A stretch of DNA of 64,000 bases from an uncultured Pseudomonadota bacterium (GCA_964651435.1 CAZYVU010000010.1:11392-75391); one strand, 5' to 3'. Shown: positions 1 through 26,111, numbered from the stretch's first letter. The notes: generated by a model from the letters alone, not told the origin. Numbers and translations: made by a program.

Positions 1-230
1 CTGCCAGCCCGATAAGCGACTTCACCTTTTCAGTCTCCGGAGGATCTTTTGCTGCTCAACGAGGCCGGAACTTGCGGCCGGCCTATGGTGCAGAAGCGCA
101 GATTCGAAGGCATCATCAAGGCCCTCTATGGCCCCCTGGGTGCTTATGACGTCGGTGCCGCGCTGCCGTTCAGTATTAAGGCGCTCCTCCACCCTTCGCC
201 ATCTCTGGACAAACGCTGCGAGAATGGTCC

Positions 231-412
231 CCGGGGTCACATCTTCAATTGTCAATTTTCGGCTACCTGTATTATCCTGGAAGCGAGAAGAGCCCAGGAT
301 GGTCTGGGTTTTGAGTTTCGGGTTCTGGGTTCTGGGTTTTTGGGTTCTCAGTTTTGGGGTAACACAAGCCGGAACGGGACATGGGAGATGGAATGCCGGA
401 AATGGGAAGCGG
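231..412. repeat. Composite intergenic repeat, copy L1: 25-nt core (reverse form CCGGGGTCACATCTTCAATTGTCAA) plus a ~150-nt tail with GGGTTYT-type and GGGARAT-type heptamer runs
   Basis: Read directly: 231-257 = CCGGGGTCACATCTTCAATTGTCAATT. The following ~150 nt aligns by eye with 1489-1633 (shared GGCTRCCTGYATTATCC..GCGAGAAGAGCCCAGGATG..TCTGGGTTTTGAGTTT..CCGGAACGGGA). It fills the gap downstream of the GT2 stop at 439. Confidence 0.9.
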
Positions 413-438
413 TTCAAAATTTTGCCTACCCTCAGCAG

Positions 439-1449
439 TCACGTGGCCTTGAACAGAAGGTCTACAATGGAGCTGTAGACGCCCTTTGAATATCGTTGGT
501 AGTGGCCTGTGCTCAACTCCCTTGCGATGGGCACCACCCTTCGGAACAGGCTTCCCGGCAAATGGCCGCGCACCCGAAGGTGGCTGAGCTTGCTATCGAT
601 TTTCGATAGGGCATCGGGGGCTGCCGGCCGGGCCGAGGCTTCCGCTACGCGACGGCGAAGCATCATGAATTGTTCAAACTGCCGATCGTAGGCCGAAGGG
701 GGGGCTTGCAGCGCCCCTCTTACCTTTCCCCAAAAGGTGAGCCTTCTGCCCCCGGCCTGATTGGCGGCGTGCTGGCGATACTTTGCCAAAGGCCTTTCAA
801 CCATGCCTACCCTGCCGAAAACCGCGATGACCAGACCGATCCAGTGGTCGTGCATCCACTCTGCCGGGATGGGAAGGAGCACCTCTCTGAACCGGGCCCG
901 GAAGGCCATTGTCATGCCTGTTGCCACGTTGTGGCGCAGGAGAACCTCCAGGGCATGGCCCTCCCGGACAAGCTTTCTGCTGCCGACGGGAAAGAATGTG
1001 GTGCTCTTGTCCCAGAGCAGGAGACCCATGGGCTCAAGCCCTTCACGGACCAGCTCCGCATCGGAAAACAGCGCATCGAGGTCCGGGTGCTCCAGGAAGG
1101 CCGCCGACAGCGCCGCAATCTTTTCCGGGTGCCACACGTCATCCTGGTCGCAGAGAGCGATAACGTCGCCGCTGCAGAGGCCTATTGCTTTCTCGAAGTT
1201 CTTCGTCGAGCCCAACCGGACATCGTTCACGGAGATGGACACCGGGAAACCTGCTTCCGCCGCGAAGTCCCTGCAAATCTTCAGGGTACGGTCCGTCGAG
1301 CAGTCATCGGAGATGACGACCTCGTCAGGCAGCCTGGTCTGAGCCGCAATGCTCTGAAGTTGTTCGGCGAGATAGAGCTCACCATTGTACGTACATAGAG
1401 CCACCGATATTCCCGTCCCCGGGCCCGTCCCCGGCGTCCCCGGGGTCAC
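439..1449 (-). CDS. Family 2 (GT-A fold) glycosyltransferase
   Basis: ISVALCTYNGELYLAEQLQSI, ISDDCSTD and CDQDDVW motifs are typical of GT2 enzymes. The ORF track gives 439..1500, but that start is the TTG of the repeat core. The GTG at 1449 (also repeat-derived) is my preferred start; the start is uncertain and the stop is firm. Confidence 0.8.
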   Translation of the reverse strand: MTPGTPGTGPGTGISVALCTYNGELYLAEQLQSIAAQTRLPDEVVISDDCSTDRTLKICRDFAAEAGFPVSISVNDVRLGSTKNFEKAIGLCSGDVIALCDQDDVWHPEKIAALSAAFLEHPDLDALFSDAELVREGLEPMGLLLWDKSTTFFPVGSRKLVREGHALEVLLRHNVATGMTMAFRARFREVLLPIPAEWMHDHWIGLVIAVFGRVGMVERPLAKYRQHAANQAGGRRLTFWGKVRGALQAPPSAYDRQFEQFMMLRRRVAEASARPAAPDALSKIDSKLSHLRVRGHLPGSLFRRVVPIARELSTGHYQRYSKGVYSSIVDLLFKAT

Positions 1450-1633
1450 ATTCCTGTCCCTGTCCCCGTAAGGGGGCCCGAATGGGGGTTCAATTGTCAA
1501 TTTTGGCTGCCTGCATTATCCCGGAGGCGAGAAGAGCCCAGGATGTTCTGGGTTTTGAGTTTTGGGTTTTGGGTTCTCGGTTTTAGGTTAACAGAAACCG
1601 GAACGGGAAATGGGAAATGGGAAATGGGAGAGG
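1439..1633. repeat. Composite intergenic repeat, copy L2 (core split by a 36-bp insertion, plus heptamer tail)
   Basis: The core halves CCGGGGTCACAT (1439-1451) and TTCAATTGTCAATTTT (1489-1504) are separated by TCCTGTCCCTGTCCCCGTAAGGGGGCCCGAATGGGGG. The tail 1505-1633 is similar to L1 and ends in GGGAAATGGGAAATGGGAAATGGGAGAGG, 3 nt before the fcl stop. Confidence 0.9.
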
Positions 1634-1636
1634 CCG

Positions 1637-2947
1637 TTACTGCACGGCCTTCACATACCACTCATAGGCCTTGCCGATGCCGCGGCCAAGCTCTACCTTG
1701 TGGTGCCAGCCGAGGCCGTGAAGGCGGGACACATCCATGAGCTTTCTCGGGGTGCCGTCGGGCTTCGATACGTCGAAGGCAATGGCGCCCTTGAAGCCGA
1801 CCACTTGGGCGACCATGAGCGCAAGGTCCCGAATGGTCAAGTCTTTTCCCATCCCGATATTGATCTGCGAAATACCGTTTTCGTAGAGGTCCGGCGCGTT
1901 TATGCGCTCCGCGATGTAGTATATGGCATCGGCCACGTCATCGACGTAGAGGAACTCCCGAAGGGGGCTCCCCGTGCCCCAGACGGTGACGGTGACCGAA
2001 GAGGGGTCCGAAGGGCCCGATGGATGGGCGGCAATCGGTGACCCGGCATTGGTCGAGGGCGCGGCGGCGTTCGGTGACCCGGCGGCTCCTGCAAGGCCCG
2101 TTGTCGCCCCGAGGCCGGTGGCGGGCCGCGAAGGGTCCGTCCCCTGAGTACTAATATTGACAATTGAAGATGTGACCCCGGCAGGGTCCGTGCCCTGAAT
2201 GCCGAAGGCGCCCAGGACGGCCAGAACGTCCGCCTCGGGCGACTGGCGGGAAATCACAATCTCCCTCCCCCCGGACCGGAGCCGGCCATTGCCGTATCTG
2301 AGAAAGTCGGCTCTGATGGCATCCCATTCTCCCTCGGCAAGAAGGCGGGCAAGGTGAAACTTGCGGATCAGCGCCGGCAGGACGTGAGACGTCTCCAGAT
2401 TGTAATTGTCGTTAGGGCCATAGAGGTTCGTGGGCATGACAGAAATGAAGTTGTCCCTGTATTGGCGGTAGTAGCTTTCGCACAGCTTGATGCCTGCTAT
2501 CTTCGCGATGGCATAGGGCTCGTTCGTGTATTCAAGGTAGCCGGAGAGCAGGCACTCTTCCCGCAACGGCTGGGGTGCGAGCTTCGGGTAGATGCAGGAG
2601 CTGCCGAGGAAGATGAGCTTCTTCACGCCGTGCTGGTGGGCCGCCTCGATGAGGTTGGCCTCGATCATGAGGTTCTGGTAAATGAATTCGGCCCGATAGG
2701 TGTTGTTGGCCATGATGCCGCCCACGCGGGCTGCGGCGATGATAACGTATTCCGGTCGCACCTCGGCGAAGAAGCGTTCCGTAGCGTCCTGGCGGATCAG
2801 ATCGAGCTCGTCCAACTCTCGCGTAACGATATTCTTGTGGCCTTCCGCAGCAAACTTGCGCAGGATCGCCGATCCCACCATTCCGGCATGGCCGGCTATG
2901 TATATCTTTGCATCCTTGTTGATTCCGTGTTGGTCTGCTTGCGACAT
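1637..2947 (-). CDS. fcl: GDP-L-fucose synthase (GDP-4-keto-6-deoxymannose 3,5-epimerase/4-reductase) carrying a ~65-codon in-frame insert
   Basis: N-terminal Rossmann [14 protein letters not shown], then [47 protein letters not shown] and [18 protein letters not shown] all match the Fcl/WcaG family as I remember it. The length is 436 aa. Confidence 0.9.
2147..2182. repeat. Core repeat copy inside fcl, bracketed by 15-nt direct repeats
   Basis: 2157-2181 = TTGACAATTGAAGATGTGACCCCGG. Flanks are AGGGTCCGTCCCCTG (2132-2146) and AGGGTCCGTGCCCTG (2183-2197), 51 nt apart. Confidence 0.9.
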
Positions 2948-3227
2948 GATGCCTCCGCCCAGCTTAAGGTCGAGCAGAAAGGGCCGATGCTTAAGACCGC
3001 TCTTTCAAAAAACCTTACTGCTTCGGACTGCTTCGGAAGAATTGCGTTGCTTTTGTCCGTGCTCGAGAAACTGAATGTGCGGCTTCCGTCGTACGAAATA
3101 TCTTCGAAGCGCCGGCATCGAGCACGCCCTCGGCCCTTTCGGTAAAGAATACCACAAGAAGCCTCGAATTCATAGAATGTCCGATAAAGGTCCGATAGTG
3201 ATCTCGCAGGGCCCCGCACGCCTTCGA

Positions 3228-4403
3228 TCACTGCCCGAACATGGCGACGGGCGCAGACACGGGTGCGCCGACATAGGAGAGGATGATGTGGCGGATGCGC
3301 TCTGCCGCCTTGCCGTCTCCGTAAGGATTGTGGGCATGGGACATCGTTGCGTATTCATTGCCGTCGGCCATGAGGCGGGTCACCTCTTCGACGATCGTTC
3401 CGTAATCGGTGCCAACAAGCCTGACCGTTCCTGCCGCCACCCCCTCGGGCCTCTCTGTCGTGTTGCGCATGACGAGCACGGGCTTGCCGAGGCCCGGCGC
3501 CTCCTCCTGAACGCCGCCCGAGTCGGTGAGGATGAGGTGCGCTCGGTTCATGAGGGCCACGAAGGGCAGATAGGGAAGGGGCTCGATAAGATGGATGTTC
3601 TGCGATGGCCGCTCGGCGAGGCCCAGAATGCGTTTCACGGGCTCCCGCACATTGGGGTTAAGGTGCACGGGATAGACGAACTGGGTCTCGGGGAAACGCC
3701 GGCCAAGCTCTGCGATGGCGTTGCAGATGTTCTCGAAGCCTTCCCCGAAGTTTTCCCGGCGGTGGCCCGTGATGAGGACGACGGGCTTGCCGTCCCAGGA
3801 GACAAAGGACTTGTCGGGCAATCCGTCTATGGCGGGTGGGGCTGTCCTCACCCGCTCCACCGCCATCAGGAGGGCGTCGATGACCGTATTGCCCGTGACG
3901 AAAATTCCGTCGGGCTTCACGCCCTCAGCCAGAAGGTTCTGCCTGTTCGTTTCGGTGGGCGCGAAATGGAGTGTCGTGATGCGCGTCGCTAACTGCCGGT
4001 TTATCTCCTCCGGCCATGGCGAATAGATGTCGCCGGTGCGCAGCCCCGCCTCCACGTGCCCGACCGGTATCTTGTGGTAGAAGGCGGCAAGGGCGGCGCA
4101 GAAAACCGTCGTCGTATCGCCCTGTACGAGGACAAGGTCGGGACGGTGCTCGGCCATGTAGCGGTCGAGGGCTCTGATCGCTCGGGCCGTCAGGTCGCCA
4201 AGCGTCTGGTTTTTCTGCATAAGGTTCAAGTCTACATCCGGCACGATGCCGAATATCTCCAGGACCTGGTCGAGCATCTCGCGGTGCTGGGCCGTCACAC
4301 AGACGTGAGAGATGATGTCAGGGCTCTTTTTAAGCCCAAGGATAACCGGCGCCAGCTTGATAGCCTCCGGTCGCGTGCCGAATATGATGGATACTTTTTT
4401 CAT
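3228..4403 (-). CDS. wecB: UDP-N-acetylglucosamine 2-epimerase family (non-hydrolysing; WecB/WbpI-like)
   Basis: [60 protein letters not shown] and [12 protein letters not shown] are hallmark WecB-family motifs. ATG start. Confidence 0.9.
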
Positions 4404-4637
4404 CTATAGTCCTCAGCGTTCCCTTGCATGGTGTTGCTTCGGTAACGAACCTTTCCGCAGCAAGATGTGGAGACGGTCTCCTGCCGCATCTCCTACCCTA
4501 TCGCTTGCCTCCGCCTCCGGCCTCTGTTTCTGACCTCTATCGCTTGCCCATCTCCTACCACATCTCCGACTCTACCCCCGCTTACTCCTCCCCCATCGAG
4601 GGGAGAGGATTGAGGTGGGGGTCAAAAGGGTGCCGGC

Positions 4638-5555
4638 TTATGGTGCGTCAGGCCTTGCCAATCCCGAATATTGACAATTGAAGATGTGACCCCGAGGAAG
4701 GCGGAGGAAGGCGGAGAGGGCATCGCGCCAGGGCCGCATGGTGATGCCAAGCTCGCGGGCAAGCTTCGCCTTCGACATGTAGGAGTTCCTCGGTCGCGTT
4801 GCCTTCGTCGGATACTCCTCGGTGGATATGGGGACAATGCGCACGTCCCTCGTCACGAGGCCCCTTTCCCGGGCCAGGCGGTAGATTTCGGCGGCAAATG
4901 CGTGCCAGTTGGTTCTGCCCTCGTTCGTCACGTGATAGGTGCCGAAGCTGCTCGCATCGGCCTCGATGATCTGGGCGATTGTCCGGGCAAGGTCCACGGC
5001 GTAGGTGGGGCTTCCCCACTGATCGCAAACCACCCGCACCTCGTCTCTCTCGTTGAAGAGCCTGAGCATGGTGACGACAAAGTTGCCTCCGTACCTGCCG
5101 TAGAGCCAGGCGGTACGCAGAATAAAATGCCTGTCCCACGTAGCCTCCACGTATTGCTCGCCCAGGGCCTTGCTTTCACCGTATACGCAGAGAGGGTGAA
5201 GGGGGTCGGTCTCGCAGAGCTCTGCCCTATCGTCGCCGCCGCCTCCGAAGACGTAATCCGTGGAAATGTGGATCAGCCGCGCCCCCATATGGCGGGCAAT
5301 CTCGGCTACATTCCTGGCCCCGTCCGCGTTCAGCTCAAAGGCTCGGCCCCGTTCATCTTCCGCCCGGTCCACCGCCGTATAGGCGGCACAGTTGACGATC
5401 CATGAGAGCGGCTTGTGGCGGGCGAATTGCTCGAGGATCGCTTTATCTGCGATATCCACCTCGGCATCCGTGGCGGCGAAGGCCAAGCCGCGCTCCTTGA
5501 GGCACTCCTCCACCTCTCGGCCGAGCATGCCTTTATTTCCGATGAGCCAGATCAT
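4638..5555 (-). CDS. rmlD: dTDP-4-dehydrorhamnose reductase with a repeat-encoded C-terminal tail
   Basis: MIWLIGNKGMLGREV, NCAAYTAVDRAEDE, HISTDYVFGG, VYGESKALGE and RTAWLYG are the RmlD pattern. The last ~20 codons ([20 protein letters not shown]) are a translation of the repeat core at 4671-4694. Confidence 0.88.
   Translation of the reverse strand: MIWLIGNKGMLGREVEECLKERGLAFAATDAEVDIADKAILEQFARHKPLSWIVNCAAYTAVDRAEDERGRAFELNADGARNVAEIARHMGARLIHISTDYVFGGGGDDRAELCETDPLHPLCVYGESKALGEQYVEATWDRHFILRTAWLYGRYGGNFVVTMLRLFNERDEVRVVCDQWGSPTYAVDLARTIAQIIEADASSFGTYHVTNEGRTNWHAFAAEIYRLARERGLVTRDVRIVPISTEEYPTKATRPRNSYMSKAKLARELGITMRPWRDALSAFLRLPRGHIFNCQYSGLARPDAP
4655..4694. repeat. Core repeat copy with an upstream inverted-repeat arm (TTGCCAAT-N7-ATTGACAA)
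   Basis: 4671-4694 = TTGACAATTGAAGATGTGACCCCG. 4655-4662 TTGCCAAT is an imperfect complement of 4670-4677 ATTGACAA. Confidence 0.9.
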
Positions 5556-5785
5556 ATGAGTTCGGGGTTGGAAGTTACGAGTTCGGAGATTGGAGGAAGG
5601 ACAAAAAGCGACGAATGTCCCCTCAGGCGAAAAACCAACTCACCGAAATCCTTGTCGGTCGTGATTAGCAGGGCCTGTTTGTTGCGCGCCCCGAGATACG
5701 GTTGTCAGGGCTCTCCGAGAGACAAGCTTTCTGTCGTGCCTTATCCGGCATCAAGTATCCAGCGACCAGTATCCAAGACAACAAA

Positions 5786-5864
5786 TTGACAATTGAAGAT
5801 GTGACCCCGGAGAGAGGCAGGCCTTGTCAATCCGTAATATTGACAATTGAAGATGTGACCCCGG
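5786..5864. repeat. Two tandem core repeat copies (5786-5810 and 5840-5864), the second with the hairpin arm TTGTCAAT (5824-5831)
   Basis: Both copies read TTGACAATTGAAGATGTGACCCCGG exactly. The second ends flush against the GT4 stop codon (TTA on plus, 5865-5867). Confidence 0.95.
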
Positions 5865-7082
5865 TTAGGCCCCGGAGAGGACGCTGTCGAAGACGGCCGC
5901 CAGTTTGCCCGTCAGGCCTTCGCTCGAATATTGGCGGTCGATGGCATCATAGTCGGGCTGAAAGAAGTCGTACCGGCCCTTTTGCGCGATGATCTTCCTG
6001 AGCACGGCAGCTATCTCCTCCACCCGGTAGGGGTTGACGCATATCCCTGTCCGCGTCTCGCCGATGAACCGCTCCGCCTCGCTTCCTGCCGTGAGGGCCA
6101 GTATGGGTTTCCGTGCGCCGAAGTACTCATAGAGTTTCCCGGGCGCCGCGCTGGCTATCCCCTCCCCCGCAAAGAGGAGCAGAACATCGGCCGATACCTG
6201 GTATGTCAGGGCCTCCTCCCTCGGGACAGGGCCGTCACACCGAACCAGGTCGCGGTAGCGATCCGAGCCGAAGAGGGCCTTCTCCTCCTCCGTAAAGTCG
6301 CCCACCATCTGGATCGCCAGCCGGGCCTGCTCGTCCTTCTGCAGGCTTGCCGCGGCCTTGAGCAGAGGCTCGATGGTGGCCACGGCCCGGCTCTTGTACA
6401 GCCTGCCCGTAAATACGATGTTCATCTTCCCTCCCAGGTCCCGGGGCTTGATATGCTCATAGTCGGACCGGTCGAAGCCGTTGGTGATGGTCACGGCGTT
6501 ACAGCCCGGCCTTTGGAGGCAGAAGTAGTTCGTGATGGGATCGGACACGGCCGTAACAGCGGCGGCACGATTCACAACCTCGCTCTCGACACGAAGGTAC
6601 TTTTTCGATACAAGCGGCGGTTGGCTCTTCACCGGCTCAAAGGCAAGGCCGTCCCGGAAATCGGCAACGAGAGGAATAGAGTGTCTTCCGGCAACTTCAA
6701 GCCCTATGGCAAGGTTGTCGACGATGGGGTAAGTGGCGAAAATGAGCTGTACGTCGGCGGCCTTCAGGAGGCCCGAGAGTCCGTCGAGAACGGCCCTCTG
6801 CCAAAGACGCCGCCAGCCGGGCCACATGCCCGCCCGCCATGCAACTGCCCTGACGCCCTGCCAAAAGAGGCTCTTCGCATCCTTCGATCCCTCCATGGCA
6901 TCCATGGGGTCGGCGAAACGGAGGATGTCTTTCTCCCCCGGAGCCGTCAGGCCCACGTCGACGGTGGCCACGATGGCGCGATAGCCATAGCGCGGCAGAT
7001 AGGCGGCAAACTTCACGGGCCGGTGCACGCCGCCGTTGTTCATTGGCGCGTAGTAGTAGGCGATGAACAGGACGTTACGCAT
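5865..7082 (-). CDS. GT-B fold glycosyltransferase (GT4-like)
   Basis: The N-terminus MRNVLFIAYYYAPMNNGGVHRP is typical of GT4 N-domains. The C-domain shows NIVFTGRL..ADVLLLFAGEG..PGKLYEYFGARKPILAL (an E-x7-E-like region). ATG start, 3 nt from the next gene. Confidence 0.8.
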   Translation of the reverse strand: MRNVLFIAYYYAPMNNGGVHRPVKFAAYLPRYGYRAIVATVDVGLTAPGEKDILRFADPMDAMEGSKDAKSLFWQGVRAVAWRAGMWPGWRRLWQRAVLDGLSGLLKAADVQLIFATYPIVDNLAIGLEVAGRHSIPLVADFRDGLAFEPVKSQPPLVSKKYLRVESEVVNRAAAVTAVSDPITNYFCLQRPGCNAVTITNGFDRSDYEHIKPRDLGGKMNIVFTGRLYKSRAVATIEPLLKAAASLQKDEQARLAIQMVGDFTEEEKALFGSDRYRDLVRCDGPVPREEALTYQVSADVLLLFAGEGIASAAPGKLYEYFGARKPILALTAGSEAERFIGETRTGICVNPYRVEEIAAVLRKIIAQKGRYDFFQPDYDAIDRQYSSEGLTGKLAAVFDSVLSGA

Positions 7083-7085
7083 CTT

Positions 7086-11006: not shown

Positions 11007-11761
11007 TTGCGCACCGTCGCGCGCTCAAGCGCCGCCATGAGCCCCTTATCGATAACGGTGAAGGTGATACCCAGCAGAATGATGCCCCCGAAAACGACGC
11101 TGACGCGCAGGTGCTCCGCCGCGTCCCAGATCATGTAGCCCATTCCGAGGCCAGTGGCGGCGACAAGCTCGACGGCCACAACCGTTCGCCAGCACCGGGC
11201 AAGCCCTTGTCTAACACCCGTGAGAATGTGGATGGCAGCCCAGGGCACGTACACGTGAAGCACCATGGCAGGCCCCCGCACGCCCATTACCAGGGCCGCG
11301 CGCACCAGTCTCCTGTCGACGCTGCGCACCCCGGCCGATGCATTGTAGGCAAGGGGAAAAAAGCTCGCAACAGCCCCGATGGCGACGATCGTTCCGTCGC
11401 CGAAGCCCATCCAGATGATGAAGAGCGGCGCCATGGCGATGCCCGGTATGGGGAGGATCACGGCAAGGACAGGGGAAAGCAGCCGGTTCAGGCGGTCAAA
11501 AAGGCCCATGAGGACACCCGCCACTATACCCAGCGAGATGCCGATGAGCGAACCCAGCAGAAGGCGCCGCAACGTTGCCAGGAAATGGCCCAGCAGAACC
11601 GGTTTGCCTCCGGCCGAGAGGCGTTCGAGGCCCAGCATGTCGCTGAAGACCTGCGCGGGGGACGAGAAAAGGCCTTGTTCGAGCATGCCTGCCCATGCCA
11701 GGGCCTGCCAGAGGAGCAGGATGCCTGCCGGCGGCGCCAGAGCCAAGAGCATCTTTCTCAC
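10985..11761 (-). CDS. ABC transporter permease (NitT/TauT type), copy 1
   Basis: Hydrophobic multi-pass protein with SVDRRLVRAALVMGVRGPAMVLHVYVP. The ORF-track start at 11761 is a GTG touching the repeat core; an ATG lies at 11752. Confidence 0.85.
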   Translation of the reverse strand: MRKMLLALAPPAGILLLWQALAWAGMLEQGLFSSPAQVFSDMLGLERLSAGGKPVLLGHFLATLRRLLLGSLIGISLGIVAGVLMGLFDRLNRLLSPVLAVILPIPGIAMAPLFIIWMGFGDGTIVAIGAVASFFPLAYNASAGVRSVDRRLVRAALVMGVRGPAMVLHVYVPWAAIHILTGVRQGLARCWRTVVAVELVAATGLGMGYMIWDAAEHLRVSVVFGGIILLGITFTVIDKGLMAALERATVRKWGMVGR

Positions 11762-11784
11762 GGGGTCACATCTTCAATTGTCAA
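11761..11784. repeat. Core repeat copy (reverse form) between the SBP and permease genes
   Basis: 11761-11784 = CGGGGTCACATCTTCAATTGTCAA. The extended match CAGTATCCARGACAACAAATTGACAATTGAAG is shared with 5768-5797 (reverse complement). Confidence 0.95.
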
Positions 11785-11886
11785 TTTGTTGTCCTGGATA
11801 CTGGGGGCTGGTGATTGGGTTTGTCTGGTTTGTCTCGTTGTGAACAAAATAAACCTAACAAACCATATAGACCATATAAACCGCCT

Positions 11887-12885: not shown

Positions 12886-12888
12886 TCT

Positions 12889-16121: not shown

Positions 16122-16127
16122 GGCGAT

Positions 16128-16793: not shown

Positions 16794-17554
16794 TCGCCCT
16801 CGATAATCAGCCGTCCGTCCCTGCGGGACACAAAGGCGAGGTTTCCGCAGAGGTAGTCCTCTGCCGCCTCACCTTCTGCGGCGAGGTAGGCCCGGAGCAC
16901 CTCCGACCGCGTTGCCGGTCTTGTGGTCCACCAGATGGGATGGATGACAAGCTGGAGAGGCTGCCCCTCAAAGGATGGGACCTCCGAGCAGACACAGCCC
17001 GTCCTCCAGACCCTTCGCGAATCCGTTCTGGTGACAAAGACGCCGGACTGGCTCATGGCGTGAGCGTCCGGGGGAAGGTGCGCCGGCAACCGGCCCTCCG
17101 GTAACCCATCAAGCATCCCGTGGGTAAGGGGGCGGTGCCAGCTAAAGGAGTCGAGGGTGCCAAGCTCCAGGCGGGCCAGGGAGAAGAGCGAAAGCAGGGC
17201 CTCGCCGGCATCGGGCCGACCGTCGCCGTCGCCGAAAAGGGCCTTTGCGTCCACATGCAGCCCGACGTGGTGCCCCAGAGACCTCAGCTCTTCGATGATT
17301 GCCCGTGAACCGCCCGTGGCCGGATTGTAGGCATCGGACGTAACCATAACGTGGTATACGGCCGAGATACCCATCTCGGCCTCAATGCGGGCCATACGCA
17401 GGGCTTCTCGCAGGCTCAGATCCACATCGTGACGCATGACGATCCTATGGGGCCGGCCCGCCTCGGGCGACGAAAAGCAGGTGAACCGGTATCCCGCAGA
17501 CAGGAAGGCCCGGACAATCTCTTTGTAATGCTCCTCGGTAAACGCACAGGTCAT
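16790..17554 (-). CDS. Polysaccharide deacetylase-fold protein (second HDVD-motif paralogue)
   Basis: [32 protein letters not shown] and [13 protein letters not shown] overlap with the upstream gene (17551-17554). Confidence 0.6.
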
Positions 17555-18537: not shown

Positions 18538-18570
18538 AACTCTAAGTCTCCGGAAGCAATGCGGGAGTCG

Positions 18571-19527
18571 CTACGGCGAATCCTTTACGAGGGGGTGATA
18601 GTCGCCTTTGAGCCCCACGGGTACGGCATGGCGGATTGCATAGACGATGTCGATCGACGGCCTCACGTCGTCGAGGCCGAAGCCGCTGCCCGAGAGGATC
18701 TCCTCGTAGCTGGCGGTGTGCAGGTCGAACATGCCCTCGGAAAAATCTATTCTGGTATCGTCAACGACCATGTATCGCAGCGATTTGGGGAGCGGGCAAT
18801 CCGGGGTTTGGGGAAGGTCCCGCCCGTCGATGGAGAGAAACCATCGCACCCGGGCCCTTTTGAACTCCAGGTATCCGGCGGCGCGGGACGGCTCCGACAG
18901 GTGAACCTTCAGGTCTTCGAAGGGTCCGAAAATCCACTGAAGCGCATCGAAAAAGTGGATACCGATGTTGGTGGGCAGGCCGCCCGACTTGGGCGTCTCG
19001 CCCTTCCACGAGTAGAGGTACCAGCGCCCTCTCGGCGTAATGTAGGTCAGGTCGATGTCGGCCTTGCGATCGCTGGGCCGCCTAAGCACCTCGCTCTTCA
19101 GGGCAACGACGGACGGGTGGAGGCGAAGCTGCAGAATGGCGTTCACACGCCGGCCCGTTTCCGCCTCCAATTCCTTGAGGGCATCGACATTCCAGGGGTT
19201 GAGCACAAGCGGCTTTTCGCAGACGGCATCGGCTCCCACCCTCAGGGCGAAGCGAATATGGGCATCGTGAAGGTAGTTGGGAGACGTGATGCTGACGTAG
19301 TGAATCCGGCGGTCCTCTCCCATTCTCTTCAGCTTCTCGACGTGCCTGTCGAACCGTTCGAATTCAACGAAAAAAGAGGCATCGGGAAAGTAGCTGTCCA
19401 TGACGCCCACGGCATCGTGCGGGTCCATGGCCGCAACGAGCCTGTTGCCCGTCTCCTTGATCGCTTTCATGTGCCTGGGTGCGATGTATCCTGCCGCTCC
19501 AAGAAGTGCAAAGTTTTTCATTGTCAT
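18571..19527 (-). CDS. wbpB: Gfo/Idh/MocA oxidoreductase, WbpB-like (UDP-GlcNAcA 3-dehydrogenase type)
   Basis: MKNFALLGAAGYIAPRHMKAIKETGN, SPNYLH, CEKPLV, ILQLR, DLTYIT.RG.WY..SWKG, TNIGIHFFD, AGYLEF..ARVRWFLS and SYEEIL track WbpB almost motif for motif. Confidence 0.9.
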   Translation of the reverse strand: MTMKNFALLGAAGYIAPRHMKAIKETGNRLVAAMDPHDAVGVMDSYFPDASFFVEFERFDRHVEKLKRMGEDRRIHYVSITSPNYLHDAHIRFALRVGADAVCEKPLVLNPWNVDALKELEAETGRRVNAILQLRLHPSVVALKSEVLRRPSDRKADIDLTYITPRGRWYLYSWKGETPKSGGLPTNIGIHFFDALQWIFGPFEDLKVHLSEPSRAAGYLEFKRARVRWFLSIDGRDLPQTPDCPLPKSLRYMVVDDTRIDFSEGMFDLHTASYEEILSGSGFGLDDVRPSIDIVYAIRHAVPVGLKGDYHPLVKDSP

Positions 19528-21824
19528 CTTCTCCGGCTCATGCTCCGCAACTGCTCCATGCCCTGGAGTGCGTACTGGTCTTCGGGGGCGTAAACGAGTA
19601 TACGCTCGAAGGCGCTGCGCGCCTTGGCAATGTCGCCGAGAGAACCGTAAGCACCGCCCACGATGAGGAGTGCTATTGCGTTATTGGGATCTTCCTTGAG
19701 CACATCCTCGGCCTCCTTTAAAGCCTCGGCGAAACGCCCCTGCTGGCTCAGGATGAGCGCCAGTGTGAGCTTGGCCGTCTCCCACTCTTCTTCTCGGTCT
19801 CCACGGGCCTCCAGGGCATGGACGCGGGCGCGATAGGTCCGCTCGGAAGCGGCAAACCCGCCCGCCGCTTCGAGAATCTCCGCCTCCAAAAGATAATGCG
19901 AGAAGTCGCCCGGCCGCATCTCCTTGGCCCGGCGGGCGGAGGAGAGCGCTTGGTCAAGCTTGTTCTGCTGCTTGTAATAAACGGCCAGCACCATGTGGAC
20001 CGTGTCGTTGTTCGGATCCATCGCCAGGACTTGCCGAACGGCCTCTTCGGCATCGGCGTCCGGTTCGGAGGCCCTTCCGTGGGCGAGCTCGGCAGATTCC
20101 AGGTTTATCTGATGGAGCAGCACGTAGGCGTCAAAGGGGTTTGCCCGTTCGGCCTCGTCGAGCACCGTTGCGGCCGCCTCGTGGGCCTTGAGGTCGCCCG
20201 TCTCGGCAAACCGGGCCGAATAGATCTGCCCGGCCACGTCGTAATAGTGGTAATCGCTGCCGGCCAGCTCGAGGCCGGACTGTATGTTCGACTCGATCCG
20301 GGGCCACTGCCTCTTCACGTCCATGGACAGGCTCTGCCAGAATAGGCGGTCGACGACCATCGTTCGCGCCGTGTCTGCACATAAGAGGACCAGAAATATG
20401 ATGGTGATGGACGCCCCGGCGAGGGCAGCACGCCTTGTCGACGGATGGGGCTGAGCGGCAGGCTTGGGGACCTCAAAAGGTACCGCTGCGGCGACGGCAA
20501 GGCCGAGAATGGCCCAGAAATATGCCGCATGGGAGATCTCCGGCCATCCCGTGAGGTCCTCTGCCAGGTAGCTCACAATGGCGGCCAGAAAGGCGGCCTT
20601 TAGGAGAGGAGGCGCGCCTGCGTTGTTAGGAGAGGGCCTGCGGAGGAGCAGAGAGAGCACGGCAGCGATGAGCAATAGGTAAAGGAGGAGGCCGGGGATA
20701 CCGCTTTCGACGGCCACCTGGAGATACATGTTATGCACTTTCGTGGGGGTCATATCCTTGGTCTGAGCCAGTCGGCCCTCGGCCTCAAGACGATACCGCG
20801 GGTAGGTGAGCCGGAAACCGTCGAATCCCACACCAAACCAGGGATAGTCCCTTATGCTCAGCGCTGCGCCCCTGTACCAGTAGCCCCTGTCTGTCGTGGC
20901 CAGCTCGTCCTTCAGGGAAATGATGGCCCGGAAGCGCTCGCCGACCTGGACGACGCTTCTCCAGTTGGTCGCCAGGATGACCGACAGCCCCAGGAGGAAC
21001 AGTGCGGCGACGATGAGCGCCTTTTTGCGATCCATACCTTTTTGGAGCAGCAACGCGCCGACCATGATCACGGCCGACAAGAGGCTGCCGACGAGCGGCG
21101 CCCTGCTCAGGGTCGCCACAACGGCCGAAAGCAGAATGAATGCCGCAACCGCCCACAGAATGCGCTCAAAGGGCCTGGCGGCGGAGATGGCAAAGAACAG
21201 CGCAAAGGGAAAGCACAGGGAGAGCAACGTCGCCGTTACCGTCGGATTGCCGATCGTCGACCCTCCGTTCCTGACAACACCCCTCCACGCCATGAAATCC
21301 ATGCCGTAGCACTGGGCGATGGCATAGAGGGCTACCGGAATAAAGGTGCAGACCAGGATCCCCAGAATCCTCTTCAGCTTTCCCTCGTCGATGGGGAGGG
21401 TCGAGCAGGTCACAAAGAGGATGAGATAGTTTATGTGCGTCCAAAGGCCCTTGTACCCGTCGTGCACGCCGGAGAGCGCCGTGGGCTTGTGGAGGGCAAA
21501 AAAGGTGCTGAACACCCACCAGGCAAAGAGGGCGAACAGCGGGTAGGAGACAACCCTCGGCGGAAACCGGAGCCGGCCCTGCCTCAGCCGGTAGACCCAC
21601 AGAATGACCAGAAGGAGCGTCGATATCCTGAGCGCGAAGAGCTTCGCGAGGATGAACTGTGACGCCAAGCCGGTGGAAAAGACGAAGGCGACGGATAGGA
21701 AGAGAATGGCAAGGGCTGCCTCTTCGAGGCCGAAGCCGGTGCCTGTCCGGGCGATAGCGGTACGGCCGGGAGTCGTCGCGGCACGGCCGGGGGCTCGAGC
21801 TGCCGGGGCTGATTTCTTACTCAT
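19524..21824 (-). CDS. O-antigen ligase/polymerase-like (Wzy_C) membrane domain fused to C-terminal TPR repeats
   Basis: About 12 hydrophobic helices over the first ~480 aa with the TLSRAPLVGSLL loop, then ~280 aa of TPR-like helical repeats (AVYYKQQNKLDQALSSARRAKEMRP ..). Confidence 0.8.
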   Translation of the reverse strand: MSKKSAPAARAPGRAATTPGRTAIARTGTGFGLEEAALAILFLSVAFVFSTGLASQFILAKLFALRISTLLLVILWVYRLRQGRLRFPPRVVSYPLFALFAWWVFSTFFALHKPTALSGVHDGYKGLWTHINYLILFVTCSTLPIDEGKLKRILGILVCTFIPVALYAIAQCYGMDFMAWRGVVRNGGSTIGNPTVTATLLSLCFPFALFFAISAARPFERILWAVAAFILLSAVVATLSRAPLVGSLLSAVIMVGALLLQKGMDRKKALIVAALFLLGLSVILATNWRSVVQVGERFRAIISLKDELATTDRGYWYRGAALSIRDYPWFGVGFDGFRLTYPRYRLEAEGRLAQTKDMTPTKVHNMYLQVAVESGIPGLLLYLLLIAAVLSLLLRRPSPNNAGAPPLLKAAFLAAIVSYLAEDLTGWPEISHAAYFWAILGLAVAAAVPFEVPKPAAQPHPSTRRAALAGASITIIFLVLLCADTARTMVVDRLFWQSLSMDVKRQWPRIESNIQSGLELAGSDYHYYDVAGQIYSARFAETGDLKAHEAAATVLDEAERANPFDAYVLLHQINLESAELAHGRASEPDADAEEAVRQVLAMDPNNDTVHMVLAVYYKQQNKLDQALSSARRAKEMRPGDFSHYLLEAEILEAAGGFAASERTYRARVHALEARGDREEEWETAKLTLALILSQQGRFAEALKEAEDVLKEDPNNAIALLIVGGAYGSLGDIAKARSAFERILVYAPEDQYALQGMEQLRSMSRRR

Positions 21825-22124
21825 AGGTTTGAAATAATGTTACGGCAATTAGGTCTTGACAGTGCTTGTTCGAGCAGGCTACCGCCCTCGATGTCTTAAA
21901 ACACCCGGTATTGAACACGACTTCACAACAGCAAAAAAGGCCTGCGTCATACCCCAAGGGAGTATCGCATCAGCCCCTCATTCCTTCCTGCCCAAAAGGC
22001 CAACGATATCCCTCCGGAACAGGTCCCAGCATGCCAATGTATTATTCGTTGTTATATCCCACATGGTTAGTTGCCGTCAAGCTTGAGACCCCTTGATAGA
22101 CAACGGAAAAGGGGGCATGGGGCG

Positions 22125-23072
22125 CTATTTTGCCAACGGCCGGCCCGAGGGCTGCGAACCGTCCGACACGATCTTTCGGGGGGTGGCCCCGGGAAAGAGG
22201 TCGAGGTACCAGAGATCGGATGTGGCCCTCGAATCGGCACCAGGCCTTTCGAAAATGATGGCCCTGCCGTGGCTCACGAAGGTGGGGTTCGACCCCTCGG
22301 TGATTCTGCGCTTTGTGCCCTTCTGAACGTTGACCAGATAGATTGTGCCCCGGGAGGATTCATAGTTGCCCGGACCGTAGCAGAGGATTGCGCTCCCATC
22401 CCGATCAAAACGAGGGCGCCAATAGGGGGTGCTATCGGTGCCTTGGGGGAAATGAAAAACAGGCTTTCCGCCCGACTCTATGACCTCCAACCCTCCGGAC
22501 AGGTCATTCGTGTGCTCGCTGTATGCCACCTGCCTGCCGTCAGGCGAAAAGGAAGGCCAGGCATATACGCGGCCCGTGTCTATCAACACGTCGGAGCTGC
22601 CCGCAAAAACGGACGATGTGAGGCTCAGCAAATCGATGACGATAAGGGCCACATTGGCAAATGAAATGGAGTCGTCGCCGATCCAATATGTTTTCATGTT
22701 GGAAACGCCCGCAAAGATGAGACTCGTACCGTCGGGTGAAAAGGCGGGGTGGGCCCCTCCCCGTATGCCGCGCAGCGAAAATCGCTTGGCGGGGCCGCCT
22801 CTTGCGGGAACGAGATAGATGCTTCCGAGATCCGGCGATTCGTCGGTGCCGGTAATATAGGCCACCCACTTTCCGTCGGGCGAAATGGCGGGGTGGGTAT
22901 CCTGCCCCGAAAAGGTCAATTGCTTCTCCCAGCTCCCCTTCGCATTGGCGACCCATATGTTGCCCCGGCGGACAAAAGCGATAGCAGCCTCTTCGGCCGC
23001 CGCGGGGATGGTCAAAAGGAGGGACGCGAAAATAACAAAGAATACCAACAAGCGGACTGGGGCACGACTCAT
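22125..23072 (-). CDS. Periplasmic PD40/TolB-like beta-propeller protein
   Basis: Signal peptide MSRAPVRLLVFFVIFASLLLTIPAAA. Repeated P.xSPDG motifs (HPAISPDGKWVAY, HPAFSPDGTSLIF, WPSFSPDGRQVAY). I use the ATG at 23072. Confidence 0.85.
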   Translation of the reverse strand: MSRAPVRLLVFFVIFASLLLTIPAAAEEAAIAFVRRGNIWVANAKGSWEKQLTFSGQDTHPAISPDGKWVAYITGTDESPDLGSIYLVPARGGPAKRFSLRGIRGGAHPAFSPDGTSLIFAGVSNMKTYWIGDDSISFANVALIVIDLLSLTSSVFAGSSDVLIDTGRVYAWPSFSPDGRQVAYSEHTNDLSGGLEVIESGGKPVFHFPQGTDSTPYWRPRFDRDGSAILCYGPGNYESSRGTIYLVNVQKGTKRRITEGSNPTFVSHGRAIIFERPGADSRATSDLWYLDLFPGATPRKIVSDGSQPSGRPLAK

Positions 23073-23151
23073 AGGTACCTCATTATACCACGGAGCGGAC
23101 CGGGAAAGTCCATGCATACCTCGCCTATCTCCGGAGCTGTCCCTATATTCT

Positions 23152-23180
23152 TTGACAATCGGTTTTGCACCTGGTACCAT
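23152..23180 (+). promoter_or_regulatory. Putative sigma70-type promoter (TTGACA-N17-TACCAT) ending 6 nt before the ATG
   Basis: TTGACA at 23152-23157 and TACCAT at 23175-23180 with a 17-nt spacer. The ATG of the TPR lipoprotein is at 23187. Confidence 0.4.
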
Positions 23181-23186
23181 GCTTGT

Positions 23187-23702
23187 ATGTTACGGGTTAC
23201 AGCGCTTATGGCGGTTCTGGTGGGGACCCTTTTCCTCCCCGGTTGCTTCAACTACGTCTACGACATGAACCGGGAGGCCGACGAGGCCATCACCGCCGGC
23301 AATTACGGCCAAGCCCTCGGGGCCTACGACCGGGCCATCAACCTAAACCCCAGGGATGCCGAAGCCTATATGGGGCGAGGCTACGTGCACCAGCGTCTGG
23401 GCAACTATCATGGGGCGATTGCGGACTTCTCGCGCGCTATCGAACTCATGCCGAACAACGCCACGCCCTTCTTCCTGCGGGGTATGGCCTACAGCATGAG
23501 CGGCGACAACGAGCGGGCCGTGAAGGATTACTGGCAGTCCATAGCCCGCGACCCCGGCAACAGCGACGTCTACTTCAACCTTGCCGAGTCTTACAATGCC
23601 CTCGGCGACAGGGGTAAAGCGCTTGAAAACTATCGCAAAGCGGCCAAGCTCGGCAACGCCGACGCCCAAAACGCATTGAAGCAGCAAGGGTTCGGCTGGT
23701 AA
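23187..23702 (+). CDS. TPR-repeat lipoprotein
   Basis: Lipobox LFLPGC after a hydrophobic N-terminus. Four TPR units (AYDRAINLNPRDAEAYMGRGYV .. ). The ORF-track start at 22749 lies antisense to the neighbouring gene. Confidence 0.8.
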   Translation: MLRVTALMAVLVGTLFLPGCFNYVYDMNREADEAITAGNYGQALGAYDRAINLNPRDAEAYMGRGYVHQRLGNYHGAIADFSRAIELMPNNATPFFLRGMAYSMSGDNERAVKDYWQSIARDPGNSDVYFNLAESYNALGDRGKALENYRKAAKLGNADAQNALKQQGFGW

Positions 23703-23746
23703 GATACCCGTCGTTCCAGGTGCAACCCGGGCAAACTCCCAGCAAA

Positions 23747-23771
23747 TTGACAATTGAAGATGTGACCCCGG
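23747..23771. repeat. Core repeat copy flush against the stop codon of the Moco subunit gene
   Basis: 23747-23771 = TTGACAATTGAAGATGTGACCCCGG, followed immediately by TTA (the stop of the minus-strand gene). Confidence 0.95.
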
Positions 23772-26111
23772 TTAGCGGCGGAGGGCGGTAAAGAGACGCT
23801 CCGCCGTGACGGGCAGCTCGTCGATGCGCACGCCGACGGCATCGTAAATCGCATTCAGTATTGCCGGAATGGTGGGCATGATGGCCCCTTCGCCCACCTC
23901 TTTGGCCCCGAAGGGGCCGTTGGGCTCGTCGCTCTCGATGATGATCGTCTTCACGTTGGGCATGTCGAGAGACGTCGGTATGCGATACTCGCCGAAGGTG
24001 GGGTTGGCCACCCTCCCCGCTGCATCGAACTTCACCTCTTCAAAGAGGGCCTCACCGAGGCCCATGGACAGGGACCCCTGCATCTGCCCCTCCACGTTCG
24101 TCTTGTTGATGGCAAAACCGCAGTCGTGGGCGTCCGTCATGGCATCGACCGTCACCTTTCCCGTGGCCGTATCGACGGTCACCTCTACCACCTGTGCCGA
24201 ACACCCGTATGCGGGCGATGTTCCCACTGCCGCTCCCTTGTACTTGCCGCCAAGCTCGCCGGGCTTGTAGGCGCCTGTGGCGGCGATTGTCCCGCGGGCG
24301 AGAAAGGCGACCCGTGCCGCCTCGGAAAAGGTGAGCACCTCTTCGCCTGGAGGCAAGGTCCAGCCTCGGTGCTCCTGCGCGTACCGTTTTCTCAGCGGCG
24401 TAAAATCGACGCCCGGCTCACGGAACAGGATGAGGCCGTCCTTAATGTCCATCTGGTCCACGGGGACCTTGAGGCTCTCCGAGAGCGCCTCAAGGATCCG
24501 GCCCTTCACCGATTCGGCGGCCTGCTTGACGGCATGTCCCGTCATCAGGGTCTGGCGGGACGAATATGCGCCAAGGTCGACGCCGAAATCGGTGTCTCCC
24601 GAATGGACGCGCACATCCTCGTAACGAACGCCGAGTGCCTCTGCTGCGATCATGGCGAGGGTCGTATCGGACCCTTGTCCTATTTCCGCCGAGGCCGTAT
24701 AAAGGTTGACGGTGCCGCCGTCTTCCGAGACCTTGATCATGCACGTGGAATGGAAGGTGTCGGACCGGTAGATGGGGTAACCGGCGCCCGAAACGAAGAA
24801 GCCGCACGCCATGCCGATGCCTTTCCCCGGCGGCAGCTTGCCCTTCTTGGCCTTCCAGTCCGACCCGTCCCTAACGGCTTCGATGCACTCGCGCATGCCG
24901 AGGCTGCTCATGTTGAAGTCGTTGCACGTAACGTCTCCCCTCTCGATGATGTTTTTCAGACGAAATTCTATAGGATCTATGCCCAAGTCGTTCGCTATGG
25001 TGTCGAGCTGCTGCTCCCATGCCGCCCTGGCCGCCACGCCGCCGTGGCCCCGCTGGGCTCCGCAGGCAGGCTTGTTCGTGTAGATGCGGAATCCGTCGTA
25101 CTTCATGTTGGGCAGCTTGTACGGTGCCCCCAGCAAGGAGCCTGCATAGTAGATCGTGGCGATGCCGAAGCTCGAATAGGCGCCGCCCTCGAGATAGCAG
25201 GTATTGTGTAGGGCCACGAGCGTCCCGTCCTTTTTGACGCCCGTCGTCAGCTCATGGACAAACTGGTGGCGGGACCTGGAATGGAGGAAGACCTGTTCCC
25301 TGGTGAAGCACATCTTGACGGGCCGCCCCGTTCGCATGGACAGCAGGCAGGCGCCGAGCTCCATTGTGTTGGCCGCAGCCTTGGGTCCGAACCCGCCGCC
25401 GACATAGGGCTTCACCACCCGCACCTTGCCGACGGGCAGCCCGAGAACCATGGCGATCGTTCTTTGCACATAGTGAGGCGTCTGGGTCGATGAGTGGAGG
25501 GTCAGGTTCCCGTTAAGGTCGTAAACGGCGACACATGCCTGTGGCTCAAGGAAGGCGGCATCCTGCCTCTTGTTGGTGAAACGGTCCGTCCGGATATAGT
25601 CACACTCTTTGAACGCCTCGTCGACGTCGCCGAAATGTTGGTGCACTTCGGCGCAGATGTTGCCGGGAAAATCGTCATGGACCAAAGGGGCGCCCTCGGC
25701 CATGGCCTCGGAAACGGTAAAAAGCGGTGGCAGCTCCTCATACTCGACGTCGATAAGGGATATGGCCTCCAGGGCCGTCTCCATGTCGACGGCGGCCACG
25801 GCGGCGATCTCGTCACCCACGTACCGCACCTTGTCGATGCAGAAGACCGTTTCGTCATACCGGGCGGGGCTGACGCCGAACCGGACCGGCCCCGCCTCTT
25901 TCGCCGTAACCACATCCTTGACTCCCGGCAGCCTGCGGGCCCTGGATGTATCAATCTTCAGGATCCGTGCATGGGCTATTGGGCTCTGCAGGAGGGCGCC
26001 GAAAAGCATGTTCGGCATGGAGAGGTCCGCGGCATAGCGCGCGTCACCCGTTACCTTCGACCTGGCATCCACCCTCGGAAGCCGCTTATTGATAACACGG
26101 TAGTCGTTCAT
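23772..26111 (-). CDS. Xanthine dehydrogenase/aldehyde oxidoreductase family, molybdopterin-binding large subunit
   Basis: RVDARSKVTGDARYAADL, PQACVAVYD, VGGGFGPK, CGAQRGHGG, SAEIGQGSDT and GAKEVGEGAI are canonical for this family. Start MNDYRV at 26111 with GGAGG upstream. Confidence 0.9.
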   Translation of the reverse strand: MNDYRVINKRLPRVDARSKVTGDARYAADLSMPNMLFGALLQSPIAHARILKIDTSRARRLPGVKDVVTAKEAGPVRFGVSPARYDETVFCIDKVRYVGDEIAAVAAVDMETALEAISLIDVEYEELPPLFTVSEAMAEGAPLVHDDFPGNICAEVHQHFGDVDEAFKECDYIRTDRFTNKRQDAAFLEPQACVAVYDLNGNLTLHSSTQTPHYVQRTIAMVLGLPVGKVRVVKPYVGGGFGPKAAANTMELGACLLSMRTGRPVKMCFTREQVFLHSRSRHQFVHELTTGVKKDGTLVALHNTCYLEGGAYSSFGIATIYYAGSLLGAPYKLPNMKYDGFRIYTNKPACGAQRGHGGVAARAAWEQQLDTIANDLGIDPIEFRLKNIIERGDVTCNDFNMSSLGMRECIEAVRDGSDWKAKKGKLPPGKGIGMACGFFVSGAGYPIYRSDTFHSTCMIKVSEDGGTVNLYTASAEIGQGSDTTLAMIAAEALGVRYEDVRVHSGDTDFGVDLGAYSSRQTLMTGHAVKQAAESVKGRILEALSESLKVPVDQMDIKDGLILFREPGVDFTPLRKRYAQEHRGWTLPPGEEVLTFSEAARVAFLARGTIAATGAYKPGELGGKYKGAAVGTSPAYGCSAQVVEVTVDTATGKVTVDAMTDAHDCGFAINKTNVEGQMQGSLSMGLGEALFEEVKFDAAGRVANPTFGEYRIPTSLDMPNVKTIIIESDEPNGPFGAKEVGEGAIMPTIPAILNAIYDAVGVRIDELPVTAERLFTALRR

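Follow-up and report, generated by a model that had tools for sequence, protein, structure and literature searches.

A 24-nt sequence, TTGACAATTGAAGATGTGACCCCG (the core), occurs in seven exact copies in a 64,000-nt stretch of DNA from an uncultured Pseudomonadota bacterium (GCA_964651435.1, CAZYVU010000010.1:11392-75391; the whole stretch is referred to as the window). Zero copies were expected from dinucleotide-preserving shuffles. The sequence evidence assigns the core to the terminal inverted repeats (TIRs) of the TIRYT/"TIRtron" class, which corresponds to group 1 of the REP-associated tyrosine transposases (RAYT; REP, repetitive extragenic palindromic sequence) and to HUH subclass 2.1. 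A first-pass annotation had proposed an orientation rule. Read in the sense of the neighbouring genes, the core was said to supply GTG start codons; in the opposite sense it was said to sit on or replace stop codons and to be free of stops in all three frames. As a description of this window the rule is accurate, but it is not intrinsic to the sequence. The pattern reflects mostly geometry and purifying selection in a compact operon. The best explanation, which we consider probable, is a TIRYT/"TIRtron" TIR carried in mosaics resembling bacterial interspersed mosaic elements (BIMEs) and wedged between packed genes. In the following, the GGGG end of the core is called the tip.

Identity of the core

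Exact matches to the 23-mer were found in 15 loci of metagenome-assembled genomes (MAGs), and 24 metagenome contigs contained the 24-mer; the flanks were unrelated in every case. The MAGs were labelled as delta-proteobacteria/Syntrophaceae, Thermodesulfobacteriota, Nitrospirae and WOR-3, with GC contents of 0.29-0.55. Viral contigs gave no match. At the loci L001 and L013, a pair of inverted cores whose GGGG ends point outward encloses 1023-1024 bp with one open reading frame (ORF) of 312-314 aa. The encoded proteins matched Y1_Tnp (E 3e-13 to 5e-14), and the best NCBIfam model was that of the REP-associated tyrosine transposase (REP_Tyr_transpos, 64-77 bits versus a cutoff of 80). E. coli TnpA_REP (4er8) was the sole match in a PDB search, and HYH and YIHGNP motifs were visible in the alignments. 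The C-terminus gave weak matches to Bac_DnaA_C (E 0.002-0.02, below the gathering score) and to the DnaA model of NCBIfam (E 0.008). The proteins of L001 and L013 are 59% identical; their TIRs are the same but for one tip base each.

More than 7000 homologues of this transposase were detected. Many are named RayT by JGI, and many are on short contigs (about 1.0-1.3 kb), as would result from assembly breaks at the repeated ends. All four further homologues that were fetched (loci L045-L056) were flanked likewise by AATGACAWATGAAGATGTGACCCC. The six independent TIRYT loci (L001, L013, L045, L046, L049 and L050) comprise units of 1021-1024 bp with proteins of 308-321 aa. In each, 40-41 nt separate the left TIR from the ATG, and the right TIR extends over the stop codon. 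Nearly all TIRs of these loci share the outer 14 nt, GAAGATGTGACCCC, with single-base tip variants in three of the loci, and the tip is kept while the proteins are 59-73% identical. The tip GGGGTCAC of the window copies and of most TIRs of the six loci fits GGGGWSAS. A few TIRs differ from it by one base, for example GGAGTCAC in L001 and AGGGTCAC in L050.

RAYT-like genes flanked by non-palindromic TIRs sharing GGGGWSAS were described as TIRYT/"TIRtron", with moderately abundant TIR families of single, dimeric or grouped copies (Di Nocera et al. 2013, PMC3733652). HUH subclass 2.1, with a Bac_DnaA_C-like tail (Quentin et al. 2018, PMC6006769), and RAYT group 1, which is the most widely distributed group and has flanking 16-mers at about 12 per replicon (Bertels et al. 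2017, PMC5581495), denote the same class. The inverted copies around a Y1 transposase together with the GGGGWSAS tip lead to the assignment of the core to this class. As in TIRtrons, the Y1/HUH protein is longer than classical RAYTs, and from the weak matches it may carry a DnaA_C-like helix-turn-helix (HTH) tail; the TIRs are non-palindromic with a tip within GGGGWSAS, and one of them overlaps the 3' end of the gene. The dispersion as singles, dimers and groups and the broad taxonomic spread also agree. In contrast to the described TIRtrons, an identical 23-mer is found across several labelled phyla despite 59% protein identity, which is a stronger conservation. Furthermore, the local density of 8 copies in 24 kb is high compared with the approximately 12 per replicon reported for the flanking 16-mers, and several copies are embedded in coding sequence. 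A literature search with both strands of the core returned no paper, and the supplements of Di Nocera et al. do not contain the string GGGGTCAC.

The solitary core (29 nt) is predicted to be without structure (minimum free energy 0 kcal/mol, z +0.9), and 200 of 200 shuffles folded at least as well. The gene-proximal TIR and its adjoining sequence form a subterminal hairpin of 7-8 bp. Head-to-head cores building a near-perfect palindrome of about 45 nt were found in L005 and L010, and inverted core doublets with spacers of about 25-120 nt in L031, L040 and L032. The window copies are all solitary or direct, with no inverted doublet among them. An element acting at the RNA level, stabilising mRNA or terminating transcription as REPs and BIMEs do, would agree with the doublets and with a variant carrying the module B described below, both of which can form hairpins. 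The placement within operons and at 3' ends also resembles that of REPs (PMC3733652). This function is very unlikely, given that the solitary core does not fold, that copies lie in both orientations relative to transcription, that the copies have no terminator-like sites and that an Rfam scan of the whole window returned no family at gathering score.

Other identities were considered and rejected. Irregular spacing, mixed orientations and no match to a CRISPR family of Rfam speak against a CRISPR repeat. For an inverted repeat of the Tn3 family, as suggested by the GGGG tip, the flanked gene turned out to encode a Y1 transposase. A classical DDE miniature inverted-repeat element was discarded after inspection, as no duplicated flanks were seen at doublets or TIRtrons and a 15-nt repeat in Fcl is isolated. 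REP/REPIN in the strict sense does not apply to a core with no hairpin and no GTAG or CGTC tag in it or at its ends. Regarding IS200/IS605, the transpos_IS200 model reached 16 bits versus a cutoff of 55, and TIRs are present.

Core copies at gene starts and gene ends

The exact 24-mers are located at 232-255(-), 2157-2180(+), 4671-4694(+), 5786-5809(+), 5840-5863(+), 11761-11784(-) and 23747-23770(+). The sequence common to all copies runs one A further on the inner side. The copies and the features next to them are:

22..240, minus strand: 72-codon gene (77 codons from TTG 255), start codon inside the core
232..256, minus strand: core copy 1, ATTGACAATTGAAGATGTGACCCCG, exact match, sense to the minus-strand genes, holding TTG 255-253 and GTG 240-238
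257..420, minus strand: type A module with an A/C-rich AACCCAG-type heptad tract, a hairpin-capable segment and then CAGGATAATACAGGTAGCCGAAA; most of the spacer between GT2 and the next gene
1441..1500, minus strand: split core copy, TTGACAATTGAA, 37 nt, ATGTGACCCCG; found by half-site searches
1501..1625, minus strand: second copy of the type A module, filling the Fcl-to-GT2 spacer to about 15 nt from the Fcl stop at 1637
2156-2180, core on the plus strand: Fcl-loop copy, within the minus-strand Fcl gene
4649..4669 and 5818-5838, plus strand: module B, CAGGCCTTGCCAATCCCGAAT, a 22-nt module in a 46-nt repeat of 93% identity
4670..4694, plus strand: RmlD copy, antisense to RmlD
5785..5809, plus strand: copy in the GT4-RmlD spacer, 54 nt to the next copy; a 44-nt module is common to this (5786) copy and the 11761 copy
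5839..5863, plus strand: GT4-end copy, tip 1-2 nt from the GT4 stop TAA 5865-5867; junction TAACCGGGGTCAC
11761-11785, minus strand: NMT1-permease copy, at the downstream end of the following element
11761..11886, minus strand: mosaic element of about 125 nt, filling the entire NMT1-to-permease spacer
23746..23770, plus strand: Moco-end copy, tip 2 nt from TAA 23772-23774 of an HcrA-like molybdenum cofactor (Moco) subunit

The copies are confined to the first 24 kb, with none at 24-64 kb, and follow each other at about 1.2 kb, 0.7 kb, 2.5 kb, 1.1 kb, 54 nt, 5.9 kb and 12 kb. Including the split copy, the local density is 8 copies in 24 kb or about 12 in 34 kb. Not all neighbouring genes are on the minus strand, a point that the first-pass annotation had overlooked: a gene for a TPR lipoprotein (TPR_1, E 7.5e-27) occupies 23187-23702 of the plus strand. 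The genes on either side of the 23747 copy are therefore convergent, with 69 nt between them. The inner end of this copy is 43 nt from the TPR gene stop, and the copy is also "sense" at the 3' end of the TPR gene.

The three sense copies of the window, one of them split, each sit on a gene start. That GTG 240-238 opens a 72-codon ORF ending at 22 could be confirmed. The ORF has 56 homologues, mostly of 68-85 aa and most of them aligning end to end, and no family in a Pfam search of its product. GTG 240 and TTG 255 of the core are the only canonical starts before a conserved Trp; between GTG 240 and this Trp no ATG, GTG or TTG is present. A start at GTG 240 gives an N-terminal length inside the range of the homologues. 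No good Shine-Dalgarno sequence precedes it. The stop overlaps (GTGA) the start at 25 of a DUF6036/AbiEii nucleotidyltransferase gene, and the 72-codon gene is likely the partner of the latter. Judged by these comparisons, the ORF is a real gene with a repeat-borne start. The shared module CTTCCAGGATAATACAGGTAGCCGAAA precedes the core at this site. At window 49-489 (+), gene callers on sister contigs give a 146-aa ORF on the opposite strand (no Pfam family) and miss the 72-codon gene; the longer ORF is probably spurious, an annotation artefact of the repeat.

For the GT2 gene, GTG 1449-1447 was correctly described as being in frame (VTPGTPGTGPGTGISVALCTYNG), but the core copy at this position is split and not intact. 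Its 37-nt insert, CCCCCATTCGGGCCCCCTTACGGGGACAGGGACAGGA, has no second occurrence in the window. Upstream of the ISVALCTYNG strand, TTG 1500 and GTG 1449 are the only in-frame starts, both in the split core, and an orthologue has 19 residues ahead of the equivalent strand. The GTG inside ISV is an unlikely alternative start. Downstream of the split core (window 1400-1500), three tandem GTCCCCGG-like units encode the N-terminal TPGTPGTGPGTG stretch of GT2.

At the permease gene, the reported mini-ORF GTG-ACC-CCG-TGA (11769-11758) does overlap GTG 11761, but gene callers on the sister contigs start at 11752 or 11746. The last G of the core forms GTG 11761-11759. Alignment of VRKMLL with MNFRKYLL of the orthologue, from the Arg-Lys right after GTG 11761, favours this codon over ATG 11752. 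Both GT2 and the permease probably start at the core. The orthologue belongs to L057, a syntenic relative with 55-67% protein identity in comparable genes, a GC content of 0.51 and no core. There, the NMT1 stop and the permease start overlap (ATGA) with no spacer, where the window has about 125 nt of repeat. We infer that TGAGAAAG after the core is a relic of an ancestral A-TGA overlap of both genes. The inner end of the element would then have provided a new TAG stop for NMT1, the last G would have turned ATG to GTG, and the TGA of the mini-ORF would be the old NMT1 stop. In general, gene callers disagree at each core junction (GT2 of 353 aa versus GTG 1449; permease at 11746/11752 versus 11761).

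Four further sense copies are added by a toxin-antitoxin island beyond window position 1, which is covered by the same-population contigs L018 (5295-7708) and L059 (12797-16798). With three of these copies, the next gene (DUF433 twice, HicB-like) has its own ATG 50-73 nt downstream of the core. The fourth is in frame with a Wzx-like ORF that has a plausible own GTG 5 residues before the Pfam domain. Start supply fails in 3-4 of the seven sense copies of this population. The island contains genes for DUF6036/AbiEii, two DUF433-DUF5615/PIN pairs and a HicA pair, with a sense module and core before each operon. Among its cores, one variant with a 1-nt deletion (GAAGATGGACCCC) and one with a tip mutation (GACCTCG) were observed.

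The antisense copies of the window lie on stops (GT4, HcrA-like subunit), in a C-terminal tail (RmlD) and in an in-frame loop (Fcl). As the first-pass annotation had stated, translation of the core yields the RmlD tail (RGHIFNCQ) and part of the Fcl loop (GVTSSIVN). RmlD carries a 19-aa C-terminal tail from core and flank (codons 4697-4638); its homology to solved structures reaches as far as residue 286 of 305, and the core forms the beginning of the tail. In Fcl, the core is part of an in-frame insertion of 62 aa (residues 252-313; 2009..2194, minus strand). The insertion is absent from the closest orthologue (74% identical); Fcl was aligned with E. coli Fcl and with P0122 and others. GCCGGG(G)TCAC is present in three copies in the window (2038, 2074 and 2172), all in the same orientation and inside the Fcl insertion, and two of these motifs form a 36-nt in-frame tandem of 12-aa units. 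The Fcl core is bracketed by a 15-nt direct repeat, CAGGG[C/G]ACGGACCCT.

The shared junction TAA-CC-GGGGTCAC at GT4 and the Moco subunit was also borne out. It was found at the stops of three unrelated genes, the third being that of a B3/4-domain protein (L038 917-946, on a contig with a GC content of 0.62), and the similarity among the junctions stops right after GGTTAG. The junction could represent a target preference or an element variant that brings its own stop. The C-terminus of the HcrA-like subunit is complete to within 5-10 residues of 1rm6_A. For GT4, the GT4 protein of L057 is not orthologous (24 identities) and allowed no comparison of ends. The longest HcrA-like ORF (23772-26315) has 847 aa from a GTG and an Arg/Pro-rich leader of 67 residues without homology. 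Alignment to the alpha subunit of 4-hydroxybenzoyl-CoA reductase starts at residue 73, which makes the Met at residue 68 the probable start of the protein.

Regarding the reading frames, the stop counts given for the core are correct: 0, 2 and 1 in the sense frames and none in the three antisense frames. The stop-freeness is not beyond chance, as 56.5% of the 24-mers of the window (60% GC) are stop-free in all three frames and 52% are so on exactly one strand. The sense-strand TGA in frame 3 (ATT GAC AAT TGA) is the transposase gene's own stop in the master copies. All three antisense frames were found translated: frame 1 in RmlD and L040, frame 2 in Fcl and frame 3 in L031. In L031 and L040, a RumA-like methyltransferase gene runs on into the core, which encodes a tail of the protein (GSHLQLS and RGHIFNCQ, respectively). 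The gene enters the inverted core doublet in different frames (L031 180-256, 21-aa tail; L040 531-605). Thus, the junction has shifted between close relatives. The three translated frames fit a tolerance of a strand that happens to be open, and not a design.

Selection of the core as a portable gene-boundary cassette, with one strand giving starts and the other stop-free or holding a stop at the tip, was weighed against these data. All three sense copies of the window coincide with starts, the 72-codon gene has its only option for a start in the core, every antisense frame is translated somewhere, and TAACC|GGGG is shared by the ends of three unrelated genes. A reading by eye of the variant TIRs at other TIRYT loci showed these to be stop-free in antisense as well. 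We regard the cassette as unlikely nevertheless: stop-freeness is at the base rate, one sense TGA is explained by the transposase stop, and start supply fails not only in the 3-4 copies mentioned above but also in other genomes. GTG 240, moreover, is without a good Shine-Dalgarno sequence. The conservation of the tip across loci with 59-73% identical proteins points to recognition by the enzyme as the constraint, and not to host coding.

Mosaic elements and the origin of the orientation pattern

Similarity beyond the core is limited to a few modules, which are recombined like a BIME mosaic, and the core is always at one extremity of the element. The type A module (about 160 nt) has 88-91% identical copies at 1489-1622 and at L018 5959-6116. 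Its AACCCAG/AACCCAA heptad tracts (300-345, 1545-1590, L018 5990-6050) vary in number by copy, and the other strand is G-rich. L059 has gaps of about 100 nt at the heptad tract (L018 6004-6058) and across the split core and the GT2 5' end (window 1210-1435); each replaces a different length, and they look like 100-nt scaffold gaps. Module B pairs by its TTG(C/T)CAAT with ATTGACAA of the core, forming a subterminal hairpin at 4649-4694 and 5818-5863 (DNA fold -5.2 kcal/mol, z -1.9). A third module of 50-59 nt consists of CTTCCAGGATAATRCAGGTAGCCGAAA and the core; all five copies are sense to the next gene. The spacers between Fcl and GT2 and between GT2 and the next gene consist of repeat nearly end to end.

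The consistent direction of the 50-59-nt module could indicate a cis-regulatory site. The core would then act as an outward -35 box of hybrid promoters, or as an operator for the DnaA-like HTH of the transposase or another factor, co-regulating polysaccharide and toxin-antitoxin genes. A TTGACA exactly 17 nt from the conserved tip and the clustering of the copies in one functional region would suit this function, as would the five of five modules that point to a downstream gene. Yet the single site from a sigma-70 scan was weak, lay on the wrong strand and did not exceed shuffles, and the sequence after the tip is G-rich and not -10-like. Antisense and intragenic copies make no sense as promoters, and in the DUF433 operon an extended -10 of its own is present beyond the core on the downstream side. 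This function is therefore improbable in our view.

Six contigs from other samples are collinear with the window at 99.8-99.9% identity and without indels. L019 and L020 terminate inside the core copy at 5785..5809. The independent sister contigs L017 and L020 both end at window 2574, in the 5' half of Fcl and not in a core; this position may mark a breakpoint that varies among strains. Blocks of genes in the surface-polysaccharide cluster are bracketed by inverted and direct copies, as would be the case for sites at which a site-specific recombinase inverts or deletes parts of the locus (phase variation). Such a role is scarcely credible, considering that the six contigs show no rearrangement, that no recombinase gene is adjacent, that copies lie inside essential coding sequence and that the core flanks a Y1 transposase elsewhere.

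The pattern is probably explained by the insertion of TIR-bearing mosaics between tightly packed genes. The master element is a unit of about 1.02 kb in which two inverted cores, GGGG outward, flank a Y1 (HUH) transposase of 308-321 aa with a putative DnaA-like HTH. This enzyme, acting on single-stranded DNA, presumably moves the dispersed TIR copies; in this organism, the core is at one end of mosaic, BIME-like elements about 50-250 nt long. The targets would have been a compact polysaccharide/ABC-transporter operon and the adjacent toxin-antitoxin island. If the ancestral genes overlapped or abutted, an inserted element would occupy the entire intergenic gap. With the core terminal in an element that fills the whole gap, the tip touches the downstream start in sense or the upstream stop in antisense orientation. 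Selection would retain only insertions that leave both genes functional. Sense insertions that destroyed a start would survive via TTG/GTG in the only open sense frame (LTIEDVTP), and those in antisense close to the 3' end of a gene would persist as short tails or loops, the strand happening to be stop-free.

Other genomes were surveyed with about 35 independent copies outside this organism. Both orientations are present, and the nearest same-strand starts are 30-93 nt from the tip, none of them in the core. Where ORFs were called on both sides, the inner end was closer at least as often as the outer one (for example in L009, L026 and L027). Proximity of tip and stop recurs (2 nt in L038, 4 nt in L024, 12 nt in L033, plus two fused tails). 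Outside the tip no conserved target was seen across genomes, and in this genome only a preceding C or CC. In L002 (146-168; 29% GC, labelled WOR-3), a flippase gene (Polysacc_synt_3) follows 30 nt after an exact core; this is again a surface-polysaccharide locus, with an A/C-rich low-complexity tract before it.

Several points weigh against this insertion model. A tblastn search detected no TIRYT gene within the 64-kb window that would be the cognate transposase of these copies. The copies are identical in all six population contigs and thus give no direct indication that they move at present. Hairpins are the usual target of Y1 enzymes, whereas the solitary core is unstructured. Geometry gives no reason for the TAA-CC-GGGG shared by three unrelated genes, nor for the sense orientation that five of five copies of the 50-59-nt module have relative to the downstream gene. 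Finally, the survey of other genomes is built on crude long-ORF calls.

Related systems and significance

Besides TIRtrons, the core shares properties with other mobile repeats. REP/REPIN-RAYT systems and BIMEs of enterobacteria and pseudomonads likewise consist of short repeats flanking a usually single-copy Y1 transposase, with inverted doublets and with mosaics that combine other short motifs and fill gaps within operons. In contrast, the core is not a palindrome, has no GTAG/CGTC tag and belongs to a transposase of a different subclass. As with Rickettsia palindromic elements (RPEs) and intragenic REPs, in-frame copies are translated as loops or tails and the protein is spared. RPEs are palindromic elements of roughly 100-150 bp, whereas the recognisable unit here is about 25 nt. 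They are not known to have a dedicated transposase. The HUH Y1 catalytic domain and the gene-proximal subterminal hairpin with stems of 7-8 bp are common to IS200/IS605. Those elements are without TIRs and have defined tetra- or pentanucleotide targets, whereas TIRs and no conserved target were seen here. IS200/IS605 transposases are also shorter (model of about 125 aa).

Elsewhere in the window, a very long coding region for a repeat protein was noticed at 31100-38600. It contains 150-nt units (22 copies, DGTVWTWG, propeller-like) and 243-nt units (motif SPAGIDCGATCS).

No new kind of system is revealed by these results; the core belongs to the known TIRYT-associated TIR repeats. It is doubtful, though conceivable, that in this lineage the tip of the TIR was co-opted as a reusable gene-boundary module and that the transposase prefers stop/start junctions. 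If so, the preference would account for the thrice-seen TAA-CC|GGGG, and the element would routinely donate a GTG/TTG start or a tolerated tail. A mobile element would then remodel protein termini and operon junctions in a programmed, orientation-dependent manner and not by accident plus selection.

Recognition of the repeat resolves the conflicting start calls at the core junctions. The copies of the window are a clean natural example of a short mobile repeat that is absorbed into proteins as start codon, C-terminal tail or surface loop. Furthermore, among the RAYT groups, TIRYT/group 1 is the largest and the one that is understood least, and the near-invariant 14-nt tip together with the shared 23-mer provides a concrete substrate for biochemical tests.

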